A stretch of 64,000 nucleotides of DNA. Source: Christensenellaceae bacterium (lineage in GTDB: Bacteria; Bacillota; Clostridia; Christensenellales; Borkfalkiaceae). A program made the translations under genes and the position numbers. Position 1 is the stretch's first letter. Each line of letters begins with the position of its first letter. Of this stretch, positions 2,265 to 13,642 are shown piece after piece. Below the pieces are notes generated by a model. It saw only the letters and a list, made by a program, of their open reading frames with translations, made no database searches and was not told the origin of the DNA. The stretch is from contig JAZNBE010000016.1 of the NCBI GenBank assembly GCA_045586885.1, positions 12,757 through 76,756 on the forward strand, given 5' to 3'.

Positions 2265-2282
2265 GAATTATTCGCAAATTAA

Positions 2283-2307
2283 AGGCAAGTTATCTTGCCT
2301 TTTTTTG
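2283..2307 (+). terminator. intrinsic terminator after rplL
   Basis: AGGCAAG-TTAT-CTTGCCT stem followed by T7. Confidence 0.8.
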
Positions 2308-2581
2308 TTGCAAAAAATTAGTTAAATTTATTAAATTTAACGCTTGTCTATTGCAAAAATTTTATGTTAAATTTTCTCAAAATTTAAGGCGTTAAAAATT
2401 CAAACATTTTTGAACAAAAATAAACGATTTAACTAAAAAAATTAAAAATTTGCAAAAAATGGCGAAAAAAGTCGGTTTTTGGCTTAAAAATTACATAATT
2501 TATTGCGTTAAAAAATATCGACAAAATTTAATTATTTTTGTTCAAAAATAATTAAAAATAGTTTGGTTTTTTCTCGTTTTA

Positions 2582-2590
2582 TGTTATAAT
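2582..2590 (+). promoter_or_regulatory. extended -10 element (TGtTATAAT) upstream of the spo0A-like gene
   Basis: TGTTATAAT 35 nt before ATG 2626; weak -35 (TTTGGT) 17 nt upstream; near-0A-box TGTCGAT on the minus strand near 2517-2525. Confidence 0.4.
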
Positions 2591-2625: not shown

Positions 2626-3387
2626 ATGTCTAAACACACTGTATTTATTTTACAAGAGAAACAGAGTGCAATAGATGAACTGACGAAAATTTTAACAAGC
2701 GCCGATTTTGAAGTTATCGGTAGCAGTTGTTACGGAAACAAGGCGTTAGAGGCTGTTCAAGAGAAAAAACCTGAGTTTTTAATTTTGGGAATAATTGCTT
2801 TTTGCCTTGACGGACTTGAAGTTATGGCTAGAGTTAAAGAGATGAACGTTGAAACTAAGTGCATAGTTTTAAGCTCAATTACTCGTGATGAAATTATTCA
2901 AAAGGCCTTTGACGAGGGCGCGTTTTATTATTTTGCTAAACCGCTTGATGAAAAGGTTTTAGTCGATAGGCTTATTAGTTTTACAAAAAATAGTAGCATT
3001 AGCGAAGTTAAGGGTTTTAGCGGTGAGCCTAAAAAACCTATAAGCCTTGATGAAAAAATAAGTAAAATTTTTATATCGGTTGGAATTCCACCGCACATTA
3101 AGGGTTATACTTATTTAAGAGAAGGTATAAAAATGGCGGTAGAATCGCCAGAGGTTATAAACAACATAACGAAGAAGTTGTATCCGTCTATTGGCGAGAA
3201 ATATCAAACTTCGGCGTCAAAGGTAGAGCGCGCTATTCGCCACGCTATCGAAGTTGCTTGGAATAGGGGCAGAATTGATAGCATAAACTCAATTTTTGGG
3301 GTAAGAGCATACGTTGGTAGCGAGAAGCCAACTAACGGCGAATTTATTGCTCTTGTTGCCGATAAAATGATTTTAGAAGGCGCTTAA
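2626..3387 (+). CDS. Spo0A-family transcription factor with degenerate (non-phosphorylatable?) receiver domain
   Basis: C-terminal Spo0A_C signature (IPPHIKGYTYLREGIKMAV, SKVERAIRHAIEVAWNRG). N-terminal CheY-like fold, but acidic pocket DD is QE (aa 10-11) and the phospho-acceptor position is Gly55 (LILGIIAFCLDGL; GGA 2788-2790). Confidence 0.85.
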   Translation: MSKHTVFILQEKQSAIDELTKILTSADFEVIGSSCYGNKALEAVQEKKPEFLILGIIAFCLDGLEVMARVKEMNVETKCIVLSSITRDEIIQKAFDEGAFYYFAKPLDEKVLVDRLISFTKNSSISEVKGFSGEPKKPISLDEKISKIFISVGIPPHIKGYTYLREGIKMAVESPEVINNITKKLYPSIGEKYQTSASKVERAIRHAIEVAWNRGRIDSINSIFGVRAYVGSEKPTNGEFIALVADKMILEGA

Positions 3388-3565
3388 CGATTAAAAAACA
3401 GTAAACGTTAAGTGAAATATAAAAAAATATCAAAAAATTTATAAAAAACACTTTACAAATTTTCATAATATAAATATAATAAGTGCGCTTAATAAGTTTA
3501 AGCGCATATATTTTTTTCTAATTTTGCATAGAATTGCGTATAGTAACGCTCTTTTGGAGGTCTTT

Positions 3566-4105
3566 ATGCCAAAATATAAACTTTGCCCAAGATGTGAATT
3601 AAATTATATTCCTGAAGAAGAGGAATATTGTGGCGTTTGCAAAGCCGAGCTAAAAATTGGGCCTCAACTAATGTTTGCGGTTGATGACGAAGAAGAAAAT
3701 CAAGAAAAACTTTGCCCTATCTGTAAAAGGGTTTATATTCCTGTTGCTAGTGAAATGTGCGAAAGTTGTAAAGAACAATCGCAATATGGCGACGATAAGG
3801 ATGATATCGACCTTGATAAAGATGAAAAATGGCGTGATTTCCTTGATGAAGATGAGAAAGACGATATCATTAACAAAGAAAATAGCGAAGAATTCTTGTC
3901 TTTAAGCGAGCTTGAAAAGCAAGAAGCGGAAGAACTTTTCGACGATGAAGAAGAAGAGTATAGCGACGATGAAGAAATGATGGAAACTCGTGACGATTTT
4001 GACGATGATTTCGAGATTATTCCTTTCAAAGAAGGCGACTATATTGACGAAGACGACGACGAAGAGGACGAAGAAGACTTTGACGATGATGACGACGATA
4101 TTTAA
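3566..4105 (+). CDS. hypothetical double zinc-ribbon protein with poly-acidic tail
   Basis: GGAGG RBS then ATG 3566; two CxxC-x(13-15)-CxxC motifs (CPRC..CGVC; CPIC..CESC); C-terminal ~110 aa almost entirely D/E. Confidence 0.7.
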   Translation: MPKYKLCPRCELNYIPEEEEYCGVCKAELKIGPQLMFAVDDEEENQEKLCPICKRVYIPVASEMCESCKEQSQYGDDKDDIDLDKDEKWRDFLDEDEKDDIINKENSEEFLSLSELEKQEAEELFDDEEEEYSDDEEMMETRDDFDDDFEIIPFKEGDYIDEDDDEEDEEDFDDDDDDI

Positions 4106-4145
4106 TTTTTAGAATATTTTGCTAAAATTTGGCAATAATATTTCT

Positions 4146-4397
4146 ATGATTAAGTCTGATTTAAGTTTCGAAACGGTAAGAAGGGCTATTGAAGGTCTTT
4201 GCAACCAAAAAGTGAAAATTACTCAAAATTTAGGTAGAAACAAATACGTCTCATATAAGGGGGTTGTGAGTGGGGTGTATCCTGCGCTATTTACCGTAAC
4301 GCCTGATCTTCCAAACAACTTCAAAACGAGTTTTTCATACGCCGAAGTTATCTGTGGCGACGTGAAAATTACAACTAACAGTGAAAAAAGGGGCTAA
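4146..4397 (+). CDS. veg: Veg-like protein (start uncertain: 4119 or 4146)
   Basis: ~85 aa; LGRNKYVSYKGVVSGVYPALFTV....SFSYAEVICGDVKI parallels B. subtilis Veg (GGRRK..G.L...YPSVF...SYSYADIL); veg-ispE neighbourhood resembles Bacillus. Confidence 0.75.
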   Translation: MIKSDLSFETVRRAIEGLCNQKVKITQNLGRNKYVSYKGVVSGVYPALFTVTPDLPNNFKTSFSYAEVICGDVKITTNSEKRG

Positions 4398-4497: not shown

Positions 4498-5964
4498 ATG
4501 TTTCAAGCGGAATATGATAATTTTACTCTATGCGCTAAAAAATGCGTGCAAAAAAAGAACGAACTAGAATGTTCGCTTAACCTATCTTTAGACTATTTTG
4601 ATAAGATTTTATCAATTTCGGCAAAAATAGTTGAAACTACTGCGAGCATTGACGCAGGGCTCTTAATTTACGGCGGAACGGTAGTTTTTAATGCGATTTT
4701 CCAAAACGAAGAGTTAGAAAGAAACGAAGTTGGCGCAAAATTTTCGTTCTCTATGCCGATAGAAAAGCCTAGCGCAAACGAAAGCGTTAAATATCAAATT
4801 GATAACGTAAAAATCAAGAAAGAAGGCGGAATGCTTTTTGCCGTTTTAGAAATAACGGCTACTATTTGCTACGAAGAGCGTGAAGATAAAAAATATTTAA
4901 CTAGTTCAAATTGTTTATGCAATAAGGCAAAGAACACAAGCCTTTGCGATATTGAATTTTCTAACGTTTTCGATATTGAAGACGAGTTTGACGCAAAGCG
5001 CATAAAAAAGGTGCTTTGGCAAGATGCAAGAGCAAGCATTACTATGGCTGAAGTTAAAGAAAATTGCGTTATTTGCGATGGCGAAGTAACCTTATGCGTT
5101 TGTTTGTTGCCTTTTTTAGAAAATAGTGATATATTAAAAGAAGAAAGAATTATTCCTTTTAGATTTGAAGTTGACGTTCAGGGCGCTGAAAGTTTTATGC
5201 AAGCAAGAGCAAGCGCAAGCGTTGAAAAACTTCAACTTAAAGTTATAGTTGATGAAGAAAACAATAAATCAACAATAAATACTGAAATTGCCGTTAAAAT
5301 ATTTGGGTTTGTTCAAGGTGAAGTTGAAGAAGATTTTATAATCGACGTGTTTAGCCCTACCGTAGAATTAAAACCTAGTTTCGTCGAACGTTCTATCGAT
5401 AAGTTAGTTTCTCAAAACAGTTTTATTCACAAAATTTCGGGTAAAGCCATTTGCGACGTGCCTGAATATTCACGCTTTATAAAACTAATTTGCGAAAGTA
5501 TTGAATACACGTCTTCTAAAGAAAAAGATGAAATTTTATTAGTCGGCGTATTAAATGCGGACGCTTTATTTTCTTCAGGAGAGAACGAACTTATTTGTAA
5601 AAAAGCGTCTTTGCCGTTTAGTTTAAGCCTAAAAACTGACGGCGAAGATTTGGAATTAGAAGCCGTTTTACAAAGCGTTTCGGCAAAATTAAGAAGCGGT
5701 GCAATCGAAGTTGATTTAACGCTTAGAGTTTGCGAAGTAAAAACCAAAAAGTTGGTCTATAAGCTCGTAAACGACGTAATTGAAGGCGAATTAACGCCTG
5801 AAAACGATAGCGCTATTAGCGTTTATATTGCTCAAAAAGGCGATGATGAGTGGACCGTTATGAAGCGGTTACAAGTAGGGCTTGAAGAAATTTATAAGTT
5901 CAATAAAGATTTAGAATTTCCGCTCAAAGGCGATGAAAGAATTATCGTTTTTAGGCAAAAATAA
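4498..5964 (+). CDS. hypothetical protein (488 aa), possibly DUF3794-like sporulation-associated
   Basis: GAGGTG RBS; long uninterrupted ORF between veg and ispE; no motif I can name with certainty. Confidence 0.7.
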   Translation: MFQAEYDNFTLCAKKCVQKKNELECSLNLSLDYFDKILSISAKIVETTASIDAGLLIYGGTVVFNAIFQNEELERNEVGAKFSFSMPIEKPSANESVKYQIDNVKIKKEGGMLFAVLEITATICYEEREDKKYLTSSNCLCNKAKNTSLCDIEFSNVFDIEDEFDAKRIKKVLWQDARASITMAEVKENCVICDGEVTLCVCLLPFLENSDILKEERIIPFRFEVDVQGAESFMQARASASVEKLQLKVIVDEENNKSTINTEIAVKIFGFVQGEVEEDFIIDVFSPTVELKPSFVERSIDKLVSQNSFIHKISGKAICDVPEYSRFIKLICESIEYTSSKEKDEILLVGVLNADALFSSGENELICKKASLPFSLSLKTDGEDLELEAVLQSVSAKLRSGAIEVDLTLRVCEVKTKKLVYKLVNDVIEGELTPENDSAISVYIAQKGDDEWTVMKRLQVGLEEIYKFNKDLEFPLKGDERIIVFRQK

Positions 5965-5979
5965 AAAACGAGGTAACAA

Positions 5980-6891
5980 ATGAAAACGGTTAGAGAAAAG
6001 GCTTACGCTAAAATAAACTTGTTTTTAGATATTGTTGGGACTGATGAAAACGGCTATCATATGCTAGATACCGTCGTTTCAACTATTTCGCTTTTTGATA
6101 GCGTGGTGGTATCTTCTCGCCGTGATGATAAAATAGTGTTAAAAACCGCAGGGAGTTTATATTCCGTAACCGATGGTTTTGATAATAACGCCTATAAAGC
6201 GGCAAAACTTTTTCAAGAAACGTTTAACACTAAAGGCGTTGATATAACGCTAAATAAAAATATACCTGTTGCTAGTGGGCTTGGCGGTTCTTCTGCCGAT
6301 ATTGCCGGCGTTTTGAAGGCGATGAAGAAACTTTTTAAGGTTGAAGAAGATATTAAACCTATTGCCGATAAACTTGGTAGCGATTCTGGGTATCTTTTAA
6401 CCGGTGGCTTTGCAAGGCTTTCAGGCAGAGGCGAAATTGTTGAAAGTTTAGATTTAACGAATAAACTTTATCTTGTAATTGGAATAGCAAAAGGTGGAGT
6501 GAATACGGCTGATTGTTATAAAGAATATGATAATCAACAAGTTACGCCAATTAAAAACGGCTCGAGGGGGCTTATTGAAAACCTTAAAAACAATAAAGTA
6601 TGCGAAAGTGATTTTTATAACGCTCTCTATCTTCCGGCAACTAAAATAAACGAAAAAGTTAAAGAACTTTATGAAGATATGAAAGCGTTATCGCCAAAAG
6701 CGGTAGCAATGAGCGGAAGCGGAAGTAGTGTTTACGCTATTTTTGATTCGTTTGAACTCACCGAGTGGGCGCGGTTGAAACTAAACAAAAAATATAAAGA
6801 CGTTTTTACCGCCGAAACTTTAACCGTTAATGAAATGAATAAGATAGGTCTTTTTGGAAGAACGCCATATAGACTTGAAGAAGAAAATTAA
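5980..6891 (+). CDS. ispE: 4-diphosphocytidyl-2-C-methyl-D-erythritol kinase
   Basis: KAYAKINLFLDIVG..DGYH N-terminus; GHMP kinase motif PVASGLGGSSADIAG. Confidence 0.92.
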   Translation: MKTVREKAYAKINLFLDIVGTDENGYHMLDTVVSTISLFDSVVVSSRRDDKIVLKTAGSLYSVTDGFDNNAYKAAKLFQETFNTKGVDITLNKNIPVASGLGGSSADIAGVLKAMKKLFKVEEDIKPIADKLGSDSGYLLTGGFARLSGRGEIVESLDLTNKLYLVIGIAKGGVNTADCYKEYDNQQVTPIKNGSRGLIENLKNNKVCESDFYNALYLPATKINEKVKELYEDMKALSPKAVAMSGSGSSVYAIFDSFELTEWARLKLNKKYKDVFTAETLTVNEMNKIGLFGRTPYRLEEEN

Positions 6892-7308: not shown

Positions 7309-7382
7309 TATATTCGTTTTTGTTTAAGATAAAAATTTTTCGTTAATAATTATAGTATCACAATTTTTTGGGAGAGAAAAAA

Positions 7383-7910
7383 ATGAAACGTCTATGCATA
7401 AGTTTTGCGGTTATTCTCATAATAATTTTAGCATTTAACTTTATTCCAACAAAAACGGAAAATACCGAATATTTAAGAATTCATATAAGGGCAAATTCTA
7501 ACTCTTCTAGCGACCAAGCCATCAAGTTAGAAATAAGAGATTTAGTAGTAAATTATCTTGCTAAAGACATTGCTTGCACTTATTCAAAGGCTCAGGCTAT
7601 TGAACTTATTGAAAGTAAGAAAAACGCTATTAACGGGCTTATAGACGGGTTTTTGGCTCAAAATGGGTTTGATTATTCGGCAAACGTAAAGATTTGCAAG
7701 GAAGAATTTCCTACTCGAGAATATGAAGACGTTACGCTTTATCAAGGTTATTATGACGCAATAATTATTGAACTAGGAAAAGCCGAGGGAGATAATTGGT
7801 GGTGCGTTGTGTTTCCACCGCTTTGTTGGACGGATACTTCCGTAAAATATAAATCGAAAATTTTAGAGATTATAAACGATTTTTTTATTGATAACAAAAA
7901 GGAGGAATAA
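7383..7910 (+). CDS. spoIIR: stage II sporulation protein R
   Basis: N-terminal TM; YLRIHIRANSNSSSDQAIKLEIRD and GDNWWCVVFPPLCW are SpoIIR hallmarks. Confidence 0.9.
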   Translation: MKRLCISFAVILIIILAFNFIPTKTENTEYLRIHIRANSNSSSDQAIKLEIRDLVVNYLAKDIACTYSKAQAIELIESKKNAINGLIDGFLAQNGFDYSANVKICKEEFPTREYEDVTLYQGYYDAIIIELGKAEGDNWWCVVFPPLCWTDTSVKYKSKILEIINDFFIDNKKEE

Positions 7911-8632
7911 TGAAAAAAGCGTTAAAAATATTAATTATATCGCTATCTTTAATCGCGGTGTTTTCAGCATCTTATTTTATATCATTTAATAATATGAAAG
8001 ATGCAAGCGCCGAAACTTTAGAGCAAGCGGTTATGATAGCAACTTACCGTCAAGGCTCTAGTGGAGCAACGGTAAAAACTATTCAACGAAAACTCAAAAA
8101 CTGGGGTTATTACACCGGTTCGGTTGACGGAATTTTCGGCGCAAAAACTACTGCCGCCGTTAAATATTTCCAAAGAAAGAACGGTTTGACCGTAGATGGT
8201 ATTGTGGGAGCAAAAACTCTAAAGGCTCTTGGAATTTCAACTTCATCTAGTTCTAGTTCAACTTCTGGCGGTAGTTATTCTAATAGCGACTTAAATTTGC
8301 TTGCAAGAGTTGTTAGCGGTGAAGCGCGCGGTGAAAACTATACTGGAAAAGTTGCGGTAGCAGCCGTTGTTCTAAACAGAGTTAAGAGTTCGTCTTTCCC
8401 TAATACCATTTCAGGCGTAGTTTATCAGCCATACGCATTTACCGCCGTAGCGGACGGTCAAATTAACGTTGCGCCAGATAATTCTTGCTATGAAGCGGCA
8501 AAGGCTGCTCTTAACGGATGGGACCCAACCAACGGCGCAATTTACTACTATAATCCAAAAACTGCCACAAGCTCTTGGATTTTCTCAAGAACTACCGTTG
8601 CCGTAATAGGCAATCACGTTTTTGCAATTTAA
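7910..8632 (+). CDS. sleB: spore cortex-lytic enzyme SleB-like (PG-binding domain + cell wall hydrolase domain)
   Basis: Signal/TM; PG_binding_1-like repeat (GSSGATVKTIQRKLKNWGYYTGSVDGIFGAKT); Hydrolase_2 motif LLARVVSGEARGE..AVAAVVLNRV; TAATG overlap with spoIIR. Confidence 0.88.
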   Translation: MKKALKILIISLSLIAVFSASYFISFNNMKDASAETLEQAVMIATYRQGSSGATVKTIQRKLKNWGYYTGSVDGIFGAKTTAAVKYFQRKNGLTVDGIVGAKTLKALGISTSSSSSSTSGGSYSNSDLNLLARVVSGEARGENYTGKVAVAAVVLNRVKSSSFPNTISGVVYQPYAFTAVADGQINVAPDNSCYEAAKAALNGWDPTNGAIYYYNPKTATSSWIFSRTTVAVIGNHVFAI

Positions 8633-8641
8633 TAAGGAGAG

Positions 8642-10498
8642 ATGATGGAAAACAAGAAGAATAACGCAACCGAAAAGGTTGAAAATATAACAAACGAAAC
8701 TTCTAAAGAAACAAAAACCGAGAAGAGTTCAAAGCCTACAAGTTCTAATAAATCCGCTCAAAAAAAGGCGGAAGATGCTAGAACTAAAAAAGCCGTTCAA
8801 AAAAAGAACGAAAAAAAGGCTAAGCAAACGGCAAAAAGCCAAAAAAAGAGCGAGCGCCAAAAAAATAAGGAACTCAAAAGAGAACTTAATAGAAAGAAGC
8901 GTGAAGATTGGAAAAAAGAGCGCTTAAGAAGAAAGGAAGAGCGTCTTGCTCGCCGTGATATGTTAAAAAAGGAAACGAAAGCTGAAAAGCAAAAACGAAT
9001 TCAAGCCGAAAAGCAGGCAAAATTAAAAGAACGCCTCGCAAAAAGAGAACAAAAAATTAAAAGGCTTGAAGAAAAAAATGCAATCCGTCGCCAAAAACTT
9101 GCCGATAAGAGAATTGAAAGAGAGCAAAAAATGCGCGATAGAAGAGAGCATAAAAAAGAGCGTTCAAGAAAAGGGCTTGGCGGTTGGATTACCGCAGTTT
9201 CAGTTCTTGGCGCGTCAACTTTAGCCCTAGCAACGCTTTTCACTCTTTCTATGACTACGCCACTTGGTTCTAATAACGATATGAATATCGTAGGCGGAGT
9301 TGACGAGGCTTTTTACGAATTCGTTGATATGGTAAACGATATGGACGTAAATTTATCTAAACTCGTAGTATCAACCGATGAAAAATCGCAACAAAAAATC
9401 TTGAGCGAACTCGTTGTTTCATCAACATTAGCGGAAAGCGCCGTATCAAGATTACCGCTAAAAGACGAGAGCCGTTTTTACACTATGAAATACGTAAACC
9501 AAGTGGGCGACTTCTCAAAATACCTTAATAACAAACTTATAGACGGGGATTTATTAGATAAAGAAGATAAGAAAAACGTTTCGGCTTTATATGAAATTAC
9601 TAATAATTTAAAGAACGAAATTAACAAGGCTGTCGATGGTATGGGTGAAGATTTTGATTTTATGACCATGCTTGACGAGAATAGTGATAACGTCGTGCTT
9701 AAGGCTTTTAATAATTTAGAATCTAACGCGATTGATTATCCTACCTTAATTTACGACGGACCTTTTAGCGATGGGCTTGAAACTAAAAAGCCGAAGAACT
9801 TAAACGGTAAAGAAATAAATTTGGTTGAAGCAAGAGAAGTTTTTGAAAAGGCTTTTCAAGGTTATAACGTAAAGGAAGTAGAAGACCTTGGCGAGTTAAA
9901 CTCTAAGATTGAAACTTATAACTTTGAGGCTCAATCAAACGGAACGGTTCTATTTGCCGAAATTTCAAAAAAAGGTGGAGAAGTTATCAGTTTTAACACC
10001 TTCGCCGATTGTTTTAACAAAAACTACTCTTTAGACGATTGCATTGAAATAGGCTATGAACTTATTGAGAGTTTTGGAATTTCAGGTATGACTGCCGTTT
10101 GGGCAACCGAAAGCGGAGCAACGGCGTTTATAAATTACGCTTACGAAACTCAAGACGCTATTTGTTATCCTGATATGATTAAAGTTGCCGTTTGTATGGA
10201 AAGGGGATTAGTTTCTAATTACGATGCTAGAGAATACTATCTAAACCACCAAACTAGAAAAGTTGAAAAACCAAAACTATCTAGCGAAGAGGCAATCAAA
10301 AAGGTTAATAAAGACTTAAAAGTTGATACCGTTCGTTTAGCAATCGTGCCAAAGAGTTCGGAAAAAGAAGTTTTAGCATATGAAATTTCTGGCGTTTATA
10401 ATGATAATTTATATTACGTTTATATTGATGCTTTAACTGGTAGGGAAGTTAGCGTTTTCAAGGTAGTTGAAAACACTGAAGGCAAACTTTTAGTTTAA
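8642..10498 (+). CDS. ypeB: germination protein YpeB-like with ~175-aa Lys/Glu/Arg-rich N-terminal extension
   Basis: Immediately downstream of sleB; single TM (WITAVSVLGASTLALATLFTL); IYDGPFSD motif; PepSY-like C-terminal repeats. Confidence 0.8.
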   Translation: MMENKKNNATEKVENITNETSKETKTEKSSKPTSSNKSAQKKAEDARTKKAVQKKNEKKAKQTAKSQKKSERQKNKELKRELNRKKREDWKKERLRRKEERLARRDMLKKETKAEKQKRIQAEKQAKLKERLAKREQKIKRLEEKNAIRRQKLADKRIEREQKMRDRREHKKERSRKGLGGWITAVSVLGASTLALATLFTLSMTTPLGSNNDMNIVGGVDEAFYEFVDMVNDMDVNLSKLVVSTDEKSQQKILSELVVSSTLAESAVSRLPLKDESRFYTMKYVNQVGDFSKYLNNKLIDGDLLDKEDKKNVSALYEITNNLKNEINKAVDGMGEDFDFMTMLDENSDNVVLKAFNNLESNAIDYPTLIYDGPFSDGLETKKPKNLNGKEINLVEAREVFEKAFQGYNVKEVEDLGELNSKIETYNFEAQSNGTVLFAEISKKGGEVISFNTFADCFNKNYSLDDCIEIGYELIESFGISGMTAVWATESGATAFINYAYETQDAICYPDMIKVAVCMERGLVSNYDAREYYLNHQTRKVEKPKLSSEEAIKKVNKDLKVDTVRLAIVPKSSEKEVLAYEISGVYNDNLYYVYIDALTGREVSVFKVVENTEGKLLV

Positions 10499-11930: not shown

Positions 11931-12972
11931 ATTCTAAAGGAATAGTAACTTTTACGCTCGTTCCTTTATTAATAGCAGAAGAGATTTCTAACTCCAAATT
12001 ACAGTTTTCTACAATTTTATCAACAATTGCAAGCCCAAGACCCAGTCCGTCTTTTTTTCTATCGGTGTTGCCTTGATAAAACTTTTCTTTAACTTTTGAT
12101 AGAGTTTCTTCATCCATACCGATTCCGTTATCGCCAATGGTAACGACTGCTCTATTTTGAATTTTTTCAATAGATATAGTAATTTTTCCGTTTTCGTTTG
12201 AATATTTTACGGCGTTAGATATAAGGTTTACCCAAACTTCTTTAAGTAGGTCAAAGTTTGCTTTTACGGTTACTGGCGTTTTCGTATAGTCAAGGTCGAT
12301 TGATTTAGCCGTCATTTGCGAATCAAAAAGCAAAATGCATTGTTCAATTTGGTCGTCAAGAGAAAAAATCGTTTTATCGGTAACAATGTTTTGGCTATCT
12401 AGTTTAGATAAAAGTAGAGTTCTTTCCGCTAGCGTTGATAGGTGCTTACTTTCATCGATAACAATTTTAAGATATTCTTTTTGTTCTAAAGTGAGGTTAT
12501 CGGCTTGATATAAAATTTCAGCATAGCCTCGAATAGAAGTTATCGGCGTTTTAAATTCGTGCGAAAAGGTTGAAATAAAATCTTGGCGCAAAATTGAAAC
12601 GGAATTTAAGTCGCTTACCATTTTATTAAAGCCGTCTATTATAGTTGCTATTTCAGATTCGTTATCTAACTTTTCGAGTCTAACCGAGAAATCACCTTCG
12701 GCAACCTTTTTCATACATCTAGTAAAATCTTTAGTCACATGCGACGCTCTAGACGTTAAAAGATAGGTAAAAAAACTGCCTAGAATTATTGTCAAAATTC
12801 CCACGCAAATTTGCGCTTGCAAAAAGGTTATTCTAGTAAAATTGTTCCAAACGCTATGCAAAATAACGGAAAGCGTTAAAACCAAAATAGAACTTATTAG
12901 CCACGAACAAAAAACTATTGCCGTAGCTCTTAAGGAATAAATGTATTTTTTGAAATTATTATGCTTTTTCAT
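11929..12972 (-). CDS. sensor histidine kinase (two TM, very short external loop, HAMP, HisKA, HATPase_c)
   Basis: H-box FSHEFKTPITSIRGYAE; N/G boxes NLISNAVKYS, GDNGIGM, GLGLGLAIV. Confidence 0.9.
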   Translation of the reverse strand: MKKHNNFKKYIYSLRATAIVFCSWLISSILVLTLSVILHSVWNNFTRITFLQAQICVGILTIILGSFFTYLLTSRASHVTKDFTRCMKKVAEGDFSVRLEKLDNESEIATIIDGFNKMVSDLNSVSILRQDFISTFSHEFKTPITSIRGYAEILYQADNLTLEQKEYLKIVIDESKHLSTLAERTLLLSKLDSQNIVTDKTIFSLDDQIEQCILLFDSQMTAKSIDLDYTKTPVTVKANFDLLKEVWVNLISNAVKYSNENGKITISIEKIQNRAVVTIGDNGIGMDEETLSKVKEKFYQGNTDRKKDGLGLGLAIVDKIVENCNLELEISSAINKGTSVKVTIPLE

Positions 12973-13642
12973 TTCTTACACCTTTATAGCCGATACCGCG
13001 AATAGTGGCAACGTCTATTTCGTCAAAGTCCTTAATTTTCGTGCGGATGCGGTTTATAAAGACTTTGACGGTATCTTCGTCGCTAGGCGAATCGTAACCC
13101 CAAAACTCATCGAAAAGTTGACCTTTGGTAAAAGAAGTTTCAGGGTATGATAAGAGTTTGAAAAGTATAGAAAATTCTCTTTTGGTTAAAGTAACTTCTA
13201 AGCCTTTAGACGACGAAACGGTTAAAGTGTTGTAATCTAGGGTAACGTTTCCTATAACGAGTTTTTTCTCGTTTACAATTTGCGCTCTTTTCAAAAGCGC
13301 TTTTATTCTTAAAAGCAGTTCTTCAAATTCTATAGGCTTAACCATATAATCGTCAACACCTACTAAAAAACCTTGAGTTTTATCTTCCAAACTGCCTTTA
13401 GCCGTAACCATAATAGCCGGCGTGGTGCTACCTAAATCTCTAATTTCTTTCAAAAGTTCAAGTCCGTTTTTATTCGGCATCATTACGTCTATAATCATAA
13501 GGTCAACGTGGTTGTTTAGGAAAACTTCTAAACCTTTAACGCCGTCTTCAGCGCAAAAAACGTTGTAACCACTATTAGTTAAACGTAGTTTCATTAGCCT
13601 TAAAATGTTGATATCATCTTCGCAAAGTAAAATATTAAACAT
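12959..13642 (-). CDS. OmpR-family response regulator
   Basis: Receiver with intact Asp (DLMIIDVMMPNKNG) and winged-helix C-terminus (LTKREFSILFKLL..IRGIGYK); overlaps the HK gene by 14 nt. Confidence 0.92.
   Translation of the reverse strand: MFNILLCEDDINILRLMKLRLTNSGYNVFCAEDGVKGLEVFLNNHVDLMIIDVMMPNKNGLELLKEIRDLGSTTPAIMVTAKGSLEDKTQGFLVGVDDYMVKPIEFEELLLRIKALLKRAQIVNEKKLVIGNVTLDYNTLTVSSSKGLEVTLTKREFSILFKLLSYPETSFTKGQLFDEFWGYDSPSDEDTVKVFINRIRTKIKDFDEIDVATIRGIGYKGVRNEKA

Follow-up and report, generated by a model that had tools for sequence, protein, structure and literature searches.

In every Bacillus and Clostridium studied, endospore formation is triggered by phosphorylation of the response regulator Spo0A at one aspartate, and Spo0A of Bacillus subtilis turns on three operons, spoIIAA-AB-sigF, spoIIE, and spoIIGA-sigE. 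To our knowledge, comparative work regards the kinases and the phosphorelay as the sole variable part of this pathway. The laboratory alleles sad67 (a receiver deletion) and sof and sob (substitutions such as P60S) of B. subtilis show that changes around strand 3 and helix 3 can uncouple Spo0A from the phosphorelay; Asp56 remains necessary for most sof alleles. The gene considered here is a spo0A on a 64,000-nucleotide stretch of DNA (the window, to which coordinates refer) from an uncultured member of the Christensenellales, a metagenome-assembled genome (MAG; G000 hereafter) of 1.43 Mb in 52 contigs with 36% G+C and 96.35% completeness; other G-numbers and L-numbers denote genomes and loci of its relatives. 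It is likely that this gene encodes the sole Spo0A of a probably spore-forming, genome-reduced bacterium, and that its conserved pseudo-receiver no longer accepts a phosphoryl group.

Aspartate-less receivers (ALRs), or pseudo-receivers, are known from ChxR of Chlamydia, HP1043 of Helicobacter, and GlnR, JadR1, and WhiI of actinomycetes (PMC4395418; PMC12632262), and glutamate is the replacement in 26% of ALRs generally (PMC4395418). A Spo0A_C output is not listed among the pseudo-receiver regulators in either source, and the limited literature searched yielded no description of an Asp-less Spo0A, nor of two spo0A lineages in the Christensenellales. Spo0A_C proteins without a receiver are also on record as stand-alone effector domains, some of them phage-borne (PMC10294663). 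The window protein resembles these in that its output is apparently not gated by Asp phosphorylation, but unlike them it keeps a complete receiver under selection.

The window protein has the same two domains as the canonical Spo0As of B. subtilis, Geobacillus, and Clostridioides (structures 1qmp, 1dz3, 9phz, 1fc3, and 1lq1) and is a full-length member of the Spo0A equivalog family NCBIfam TIGR02875, scoring 233.4 bits against a cut-off of 200. Its residues 145–247 match Pfam Spo0A_C (PF08769; 132 bits) and, in HMMER comparisons with solved structures, residues 137–251 align to the Spo0A effector structures 1fc3 and 1lq1 (E-value about 1e-38; 7e-39 to 1fc3), which confirms the Spo0A-type effector domain recognized in an earlier note on this DNA. 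The effector is 57% identical to that of canonical Spo0A, and its recognition helix SKVERAIRHAIEVAW is conserved, with a single change, K for R, from the B. subtilis SRVERAIRHAIEVAW. Within the clade, the mean pairwise identity of the DNA-binding domain is 85%. The other half of the protein is recognized computationally as a receiver by Pfam Response_reg (PF00072; 53 bits, residues 6–116), and residues 6–122 align to the B. subtilis Spo0A receiver 9phz. The gene and its parts are laid out as follows.

2626–3387, forward strand: spo0A of the type-2 lineage described below, 253 amino acids, the sole Spo0A_C-bearing gene of the genome (TIGR02875).
2635–2988, forward strand: receiver domain, residues 4–121, a five-unit strand-helix fold without a phospho-acceptor pocket (AlphaFold, Foldseek, and the ratio of nonsynonymous to synonymous substitution rates, dN/dS).
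2653–2658, forward strand: codons 10 and 11, Gln-Glu, in place of the Mg2+-binding Asp-Asp pair (HMMER to 9phz, MAFFT).
2788–2790, forward strand: codon 55, GGA for Gly, in place of the phosphorylated Asp56 (HMMER to 9phz, MAFFT).
2872–2874, forward strand: Ser83, the kept Thr/Ser switch residue (T86 in B. subtilis; S in 95% of the clade).
2938–2940, forward strand: Lys105, the kept conserved Lys (K108 in B. subtilis; K in 98% of the clade).
2989–3045, forward strand: inter-domain linker, residues 122–140, variable and disordered (predicted local distance difference test, pLDDT, below 50 for 123–137; column entropy about 3 bits).
3046–3378, forward strand: Spo0A DNA-binding and trans-activation domain (Pfam, HMMER, Foldseek).

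In the alignment to 9phz, Q10 and E11 face D10 and D11 and G55 faces D56, and the MAFFT alignments concur. The residue numbering also draws on a B. subtilis Spo0A sequence that is consistent with the PDB alignments where these show it. The earlier note had read the receiver in the same way, with Q-E for D10-D11, Gly for D56, and the Ser/Thr and Lys positions retained (S83 and K105), and each of these readings stands. Where canonical Spo0A has the D10/D11 pair and the acceptor Asp56, the window protein has Q10, E11, and G55, and the D-I-I-M-P loop reads G-I-I-A-F. It therefore falls within the published definitions of a pseudo-receiver, in which at least one of five active-site residues is missing, and of an ALR, in which the phosphorylated Asp is missing (PMC12632262; PMC4395418). 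As in other ALRs, a profile still recognizes the receiver, the acceptor and part of the acidic pocket are gone while Lys and Ser/Thr are kept, Glu is a frequent replacement within the clade, and the domain, joined to a DNA-binding output, is maintained by selection. Unlike in other ALRs, Gly is the predominant replacement in the clade, and the loss has occurred within a master regulator whose phosphorylation is considered to trigger endospore formation universally.

The AlphaFold2 model, built on a 93-sequence alignment, shows five strand-helix units at pLDDT 93–98, a disordered linker at 123–137, and a helical effector domain. In Foldseek comparisons the effector matches 1fc3 and 1lq1 at a template-modeling (TM) score of about 0.9 (0.89–0.93), while the receiver matches ordinary receivers with a root-mean-square deviation of 1.1–1.3 Å, activated and inactive receivers ranking alike. 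Q10 follows strand 1 in the model, and G55, directly after strand 3 (residues 51–54), holds the acceptor slot. D62 (in LDGL), which the earlier note had named as a possible substitute acceptor, is not a replacement, because D62-G63 is equally invariant in canonical Spo0As and D62 lies at the start of helix 3.

The window gene belongs to the second of two spo0A lineages in the order. In an order-wide scan of 300 genomes many carry two full-length Spo0A genes, and roughly 60 of the 263 genomes sampled have both types. Type 1 is arranged as argR-recN-spoIVB-spo0A-spoIIM (L092, L098), and type 2 lies upstream of (veg)-sipL-ispE-spoIIR-sleB (L093, L095, L096, L103, L105, L111). Paired copies are L092/L093 (G005), L094/L095 (G006), L098/L099 (G069), L100/L101 (G136), L104/L105 (G096), and L106/L107 (G097), and in these pairs both the type-1 and the type-2 copy have canonical receivers, with DDDSK at the five active-site positions. 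The synteny of the window gene is that of type 2, since spo0A is followed by the genes for a double-zinc-ribbon acidic protein, veg, sipL, ispE, spoIIR, sleB, and ypeB, an order kept in close relatives. A FastTree tree of 382 sequences places it inside the type-2 clade with support of 99, and an IQ-TREE tree of 70 sequences supports the type-2 clade at 100 and the family clade at 99 (Shimodaira–Hasegawa-like approximate likelihood ratio test, SH-aLRT). Compared with canonical Spo0A, the window gene thus differs not only in its receiver residues, but also in lying outside the recN-spoIVB locus, within a second, order-specific paralogous lineage.

The sequences of the window's family form one clade, supported at 99 in both trees, on a long stem branch of 0.67. 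The canonical set [DE]-D-D-[ST]-K is absent from 234 of the 235 clade sequences, and the active site is degenerate in all 18 family genomes whose Spo0A was read; outside the family clade, 81 of 147 sequences are canonical. The nearest type-2 families (f10, f15, f21, f22, f27, f35, and f39) are mostly DDDSK, which indicates that the degenerate state is derived. Within the family, sub-clade 1 (genera g2, g3, and g6) reads E-[S/N/R]-[D/S]-[S/G/T]-K and sub-clade 2 (199 sequences, comprising the window and genera g1 and g5) reads Q-[D/E]-[G/E/D]-S-K. The consistent loss across the family is that of the acidic pocket, beyond the acceptor Asp alone; neither this nor the spread of the trait over the family had been anticipated in the earlier note. 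Position 10 is Q in 95% of the clade vs. D/E in 100% of canonical sequences, and further clade-specific changes near the acceptor are A/V9 to L, L54 to T, and M59 to L, together with the loss of P60 and P80. P60 is thus lost here as it is substituted in P60S, but the changes in the clade are natural and family-wide, and they include the Asp itself. The only canonical-looking member of the 235-sequence clade, L079 (JAZRYO010000075.1), reads E-D-D-S-K, which may reflect either retention or reversion.

At the acceptor position, the 199-sequence clade has G in 126 sequences, E in 41, and D in 25. Proteins 90% identical to that of the window, from another MAG (L002) and from the same-genus genome G310, have the same Q-E-G. 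Among the 120 best protein clusters from a large protein collection, Q10 is found in 119 of 122 aligned rows (the clusters plus the query and B. subtilis) and a Gly acceptor in 100. In 80 loci from species-representative genomes, labeled 'Christensenellaceae bacterium' or 'Clostridia bacterium' and stemming from MAGs of human, ruminant, and other guts, Q10 occurs in 71, and the counts at the acceptor are 29 for D, 26 for G, and 24 for E. Parsimony requires at least 31 changes at the acceptor within the window's sub-clade, compared with 9 at Q10, 19 at position 11 (mostly D/E swaps), 6 at the Ser/Thr, and 3 at the Lys. The position that once took the phosphoryl group is therefore under the weakest constraint of all five, and this holds even for members with Asp.

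The rest of the domain is held closely. In close pairs, Gly/Gly pairs included, dN/dS is 0.03–0.12 for the receiver and 0.00–0.06 for the DNA-binding domain, and the Gly/Gly pair of the window and L002 gives a receiver dN/dS of 0.095 at a dS of 0.80. These ratios indicate that the receiver is under strong purifying selection and is not decaying. Free turnover among D, E, and G at the acceptor under such selection suggests that this Spo0A works without Asp phosphorylation. The feature is real, conserved, and derived, and it combines two known kinds, Spo0A and the pseudo-receiver. The relatives provide a natural and well-sampled series, from the canonical receiver through the loss of the acidic pocket to the free D/E/G acceptor, and hence a model for the change from receiver to pseudo-receiver.

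Under this reading, Spo0A would still bind 0A-box DNA and initiate sporulation, and its activation would bypass His-Asp phosphotransfer. One option is that the remodeled receiver (L9, Q10, T54, G/E55, L58, with P60 and P80 lost) is permanently competent for dimerization, in which case activity would track the abundance of Spo0A, expressed monocistronically from a promoter of its own that carries 0A-like boxes. The other is a non-phosphoryl input, for example from a protein partner or from a ligand that occupies the emptied pocket, and the retention of K105, S83, and the acidic position 11 hints that the pocket may still do something. A broader proposal, which we hold only tentatively, is that Spo0A initiates endospore formation throughout one family of gut Christensenellales without ever being phosphorylated, the His-Asp input, regarded as universal for sporulation, having given way to another signal acting on the pseudo-receiver. 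Candidates for such a signal would be docking of a ligand or partner in the emptied pocket, or control through the polyacidic zinc-ribbon protein encoded beside spo0A of this lineage across the order. This uncultured family of gut and rumen Clostridia has kept its sporulation machinery with a sole Spo0A unsuited to Asp chemistry. If the family sporulates, the decision is taken by a route other than Asp phosphorylation, which would surprise sporulation specialists and would bear on spore formation and transmission of abundant gut anaerobes, as well as on genome-based prediction of sporulation.

Several points weigh against a phosphorylation-independent master regulator. The organism is an uncultured MAG, and phosphorylation, dimerization, DNA binding, and sporulation are all judged from sequence and predicted structure. 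Asp still occupies the acceptor position in 13% of the clade, where weak phosphorylation is conceivable, and the retention of S83, K105, and an acidic position 11 is unexpected for a pocket without any function. The machine-learning classifier SpoMAG calls most Christensenellales MAGs non-sporulating (PMC12536801). In G000, no perfect 0A box precedes spoIIA, spoIIE, spoIIG, or sigH, where only one-mismatch boxes were found; the earlier note had proposed looking for TGTCGAA boxes upstream of sporulation genes. Perfect TGTCGAA occurs 10 times in the intergenic DNA of G000, at 2.6 times its coding density. A second copy could also lie in the missing part of the assembly.

The kinase complement, too, fails to discriminate. 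G000 has only three HisKA kinases, each adjoining its own response regulator, with Spo0A as a fourth regulator, and no Spo0F-like single-domain receiver or phosphorelay protein was found in this genome. One of the paired systems lies 9 kb downstream of spo0A:

About 11932–13633 (G000:C16:24688–26389), reverse strand: paired two-component system of a 348-amino-acid HisKA kinase and a 228-amino-acid regulator.

Of the 136 kinases in the family, 118 have a listed regulator as their partner, and 27 of 41 genomes have no unpaired kinase. In the control family f35, which has a canonical DDDSK Spo0A and genomes of 1.5 Mb, all 46 of 46 HisKA kinases are paired. The absence of orphan kinases, although it sets the window genome apart from the canonical systems, is therefore a trait of reduced genomes shared with canonical sister families, and it was rejected as a correlate of phosphorylation independence. 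The kinase that phosphorylates the canonical Spo0A of f35 is not evident among its paired HisKA kinases. Spo0E-like phosphatases are present in 8 of 301 genomes of the order, none of them in the family or the nearest sister families. A receiver-domain expansion is seen in G309 (family f1, genus g156; 2.0 Mb), with 58 Response_reg matches and 7 HisKA kinases.

Four alternatives were weighed and are taken here from the weightiest to the least: that the regulator has been repurposed, that covalent control acts at another residue, that a canonical copy went unassembled, and that codon 55 is a sequencing error. According to the first, which we consider unlikely, the gene no longer controls sporulation, either because the family is non-sporulating with a repurposed or decaying Spo0A or because sporulation has another trigger. 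Many non-spore-formers have Spo0A (Galperin et al., bioRxiv 10.1101/2022.02.25.481979), which together with the SpoMAG calls and the imperfect boxes before the spoII operons lends this alternative some weight, as does the descent of the gene from a second paralogue that has no assigned role even where its receiver is canonical. Set against it are the purifying selection on both domains, the near-identity of the recognition helix to that of B. subtilis, and the sporulation genes of G000, which match the downstream genes of canonical systems. These are present as open frames and include sigE above its cut-off, sigF-, sigG-, and sigH-like factors, a sigK fragment at a contig end, spoIIAB above its cut-off, spoIIAA, a 753-amino-acid spoIIE-like protein, spoIIGA directly upstream of sigE, spoIVA (531 bits against a cut-off of 460), spoIVB, sipL, spoIIR, sleB, and ypeB. 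Furthermore, 40 of the 41 family genomes encode SpoIVA, 36 of them with a match above cut-off. The remaining genome, G045 (family f1, genus g2; 99% complete), lacks both Spo0A_C and SpoIVA in what appears to be a recent loss of sporulation, and as it is the only genome without Spo0A, the two proteins seem to have been lost together. The open sporulation genes of G000 and the family-wide retention of SpoIVA argue for a working sporulation program.

The second alternative, that a covalent signal is received at another residue, either by Ser/Thr phosphorylation (for example near S83) by a Hanks-type kinase or at E11 or D62, strikes us as improbable. Several atypical response regulators are controlled by Ser/Thr kinases, and in the clade S83, K105, and the acidic position 11 are kept at 94–98% while the acceptor varies, within a receiver under strong purifying selection. 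However, we know of no receiver in which the D62 equivalent or the second acidic residue serves as acceptor, and the invariance of D62-G63 in canonical Spo0As and its place in the model apply here as well. No alternative site is conserved family-wide, given that the sister sub-clade has S/N/R at position 11 and frequently G at position 86.

The third alternative concerns the number of copies. Exactly one Spo0A_C match is found in G000, and likewise one each in the same-genus genomes G310 and G327 and in G182, G323, and G303, while 14 of 15 sampled family genomes have a single full-length Spo0A match. Contig C23 of G000 carries argR, recN, spoIVB, a 40-bp gap, and then spoIIM-like, dacB-like, spoIIAA, spoIIAB, and sigF genes, with no spo0A at this recN-spoIVB locus; the window gene sits between rplL and the zinc-ribbon gene, veg, and sipL. 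Because spoIVB and spoIIM are contiguous here, whereas in other families spo0A lies between them, the canonical type-1 spo0A has been deleted in G000 and the type-2 paralogue is the only Spo0A left. Taken over the order, the sequences point to a duplication of spo0A of which, in the window's family, the second copy became the only one. The earlier note had suggested either a paralogue acting beside a canonical spo0A, with a second gene near spoIVB and recN, or an unusual sporulation master switch. The first suggestion is right as to descent, as the gene does belong to a second lineage, but no canonical copy accompanies it in G000; the second accords with its standing as the sole Spo0A of the genome, its independence from phosphorylation being something that we infer. 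That a canonical spo0A lies in the unassembled 4% or so of the genome, leaving the window gene as an accessory paralogue, is very improbable: the fragmented assembly and the genomes of the order with both types would allow it, but the ancestral locus has no room, and 18 other family genomes have a single full-length Spo0A, several of them being 97–100% complete in 10–30 contigs.

The last alternative, a sequencing or assembly error at codon 55, was raised in the earlier note and has nothing in its favor beyond the genome being a MAG, and it is refuted by the conservation of Gly, which occurs in 126 independent clade sequences with four different codons and together with Q10. Among the Gly codons counted, GGA appears 8 times, GGC 7, GGG 5, and GGT 6.

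Other Spo0A_C proteins were seen in a few relatives. Within the window's family, G275 has two identical 130-amino-acid, receiver-less Spo0A_C open reading frames (L087 on G275:C34 and L091 on G275:C4) beside a full-length pseudo-receiver Spo0A, and these may lie on a repeated or mobile element. In genus g2, L088 (G076), L089 (G007), and L090 (G165) are a second, very distant response regulator of about 25% identity with a Spo0A_C-like match of 53–72 bits and an E-D-D pocket.

Upstream of the window gene, rplK-rplA-rplJ-rplL (1–2264) is followed by a 360-bp AT-rich spacer (2265–2625) and spo0A in place of rpoB-rpoC. Of 46 related loci, L002 is the only one that has this rplL-spo0A junction as well, which suggests a recent rearrangement. 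The 320-bp region upstream of spo0A is 85% identical to that of L002 and, with the end of the gene, contains the following elements.

2281–2302, forward strand: terminator-like hairpin after rplL, conserved in L002.
2460–2466, forward strand: TGGCGAA at -166, fitting the relaxed 0A box TGNCGAA, with TGCCGAA at the same place in L002; a weak, one-mismatch heptamer in two sequences.
2517–2523, reverse strand: TGTCGAT at -109, matching 6 of 7 positions of the 0A box and identical in L002; weak evidence.
2582–2590, forward strand: TGTTATAAT, which resembles an extended -10 element and lies 36 nt ahead of the start codon, read from the sequence and conserved in L002.
3483–3507, forward strand: terminator-like hairpin after spo0A (sequence scan).

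With terminator-like hairpins on both sides, spo0A appears to be monocistronic. The TGTTATAAT element was not listed by a consensus promoter scan because its -35 is poor. The upstream 0A-like boxes, seen in two sequences, are compatible with autoregulation.

The genes downstream of spo0A are those that mark the type-2 locus.

3566–4105, forward strand: protein that combines a double zinc ribbon with a polyacidic tail and usually adjoins type-2 spo0A (Pfam DZR at 23 bits, under the cut-off).
4119–4397, forward strand: veg (PF06257, 59 bits).
4498–5964, forward strand: sipL-like gene (SPOCS domain, SpoIVA partner), a synteny marker of type-2 spo0A (PF12673, 55 bits).
5980–6891, forward strand: ispE (TIGR00154, 164 bits).
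7368–7910, forward strand: spoIIR (TIGR02837, 136 bits; cut-off 152).
7910–8632, forward strand: sleB (TIGR02869, 298 bits).
8642–10498, forward strand: ypeB (TIGR02889, 283 bits; cut-off 304).

The zinc-ribbon protein has a tail of roughly 100 residues of Asp/Glu. Its gene follows spo0A in 38 of the 46 clade loci, and 252 of the 301 genomes of the order encode the protein. It also adjoins type-2 spo0A, in tandem or divergently, in many families whose receivers are canonical. It is unlinked from spo0A in three genera of the window's family and is present in genomes without Spo0A (G045, G041). Since it occurs order-wide, it was rejected as a family-specific partner and is instead a candidate partner of the type-2 lineage generally, rather than of the pseudo-receiver. 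In that capacity, it could act as a DNA mimic or as a partner of type-2 Spo0A.

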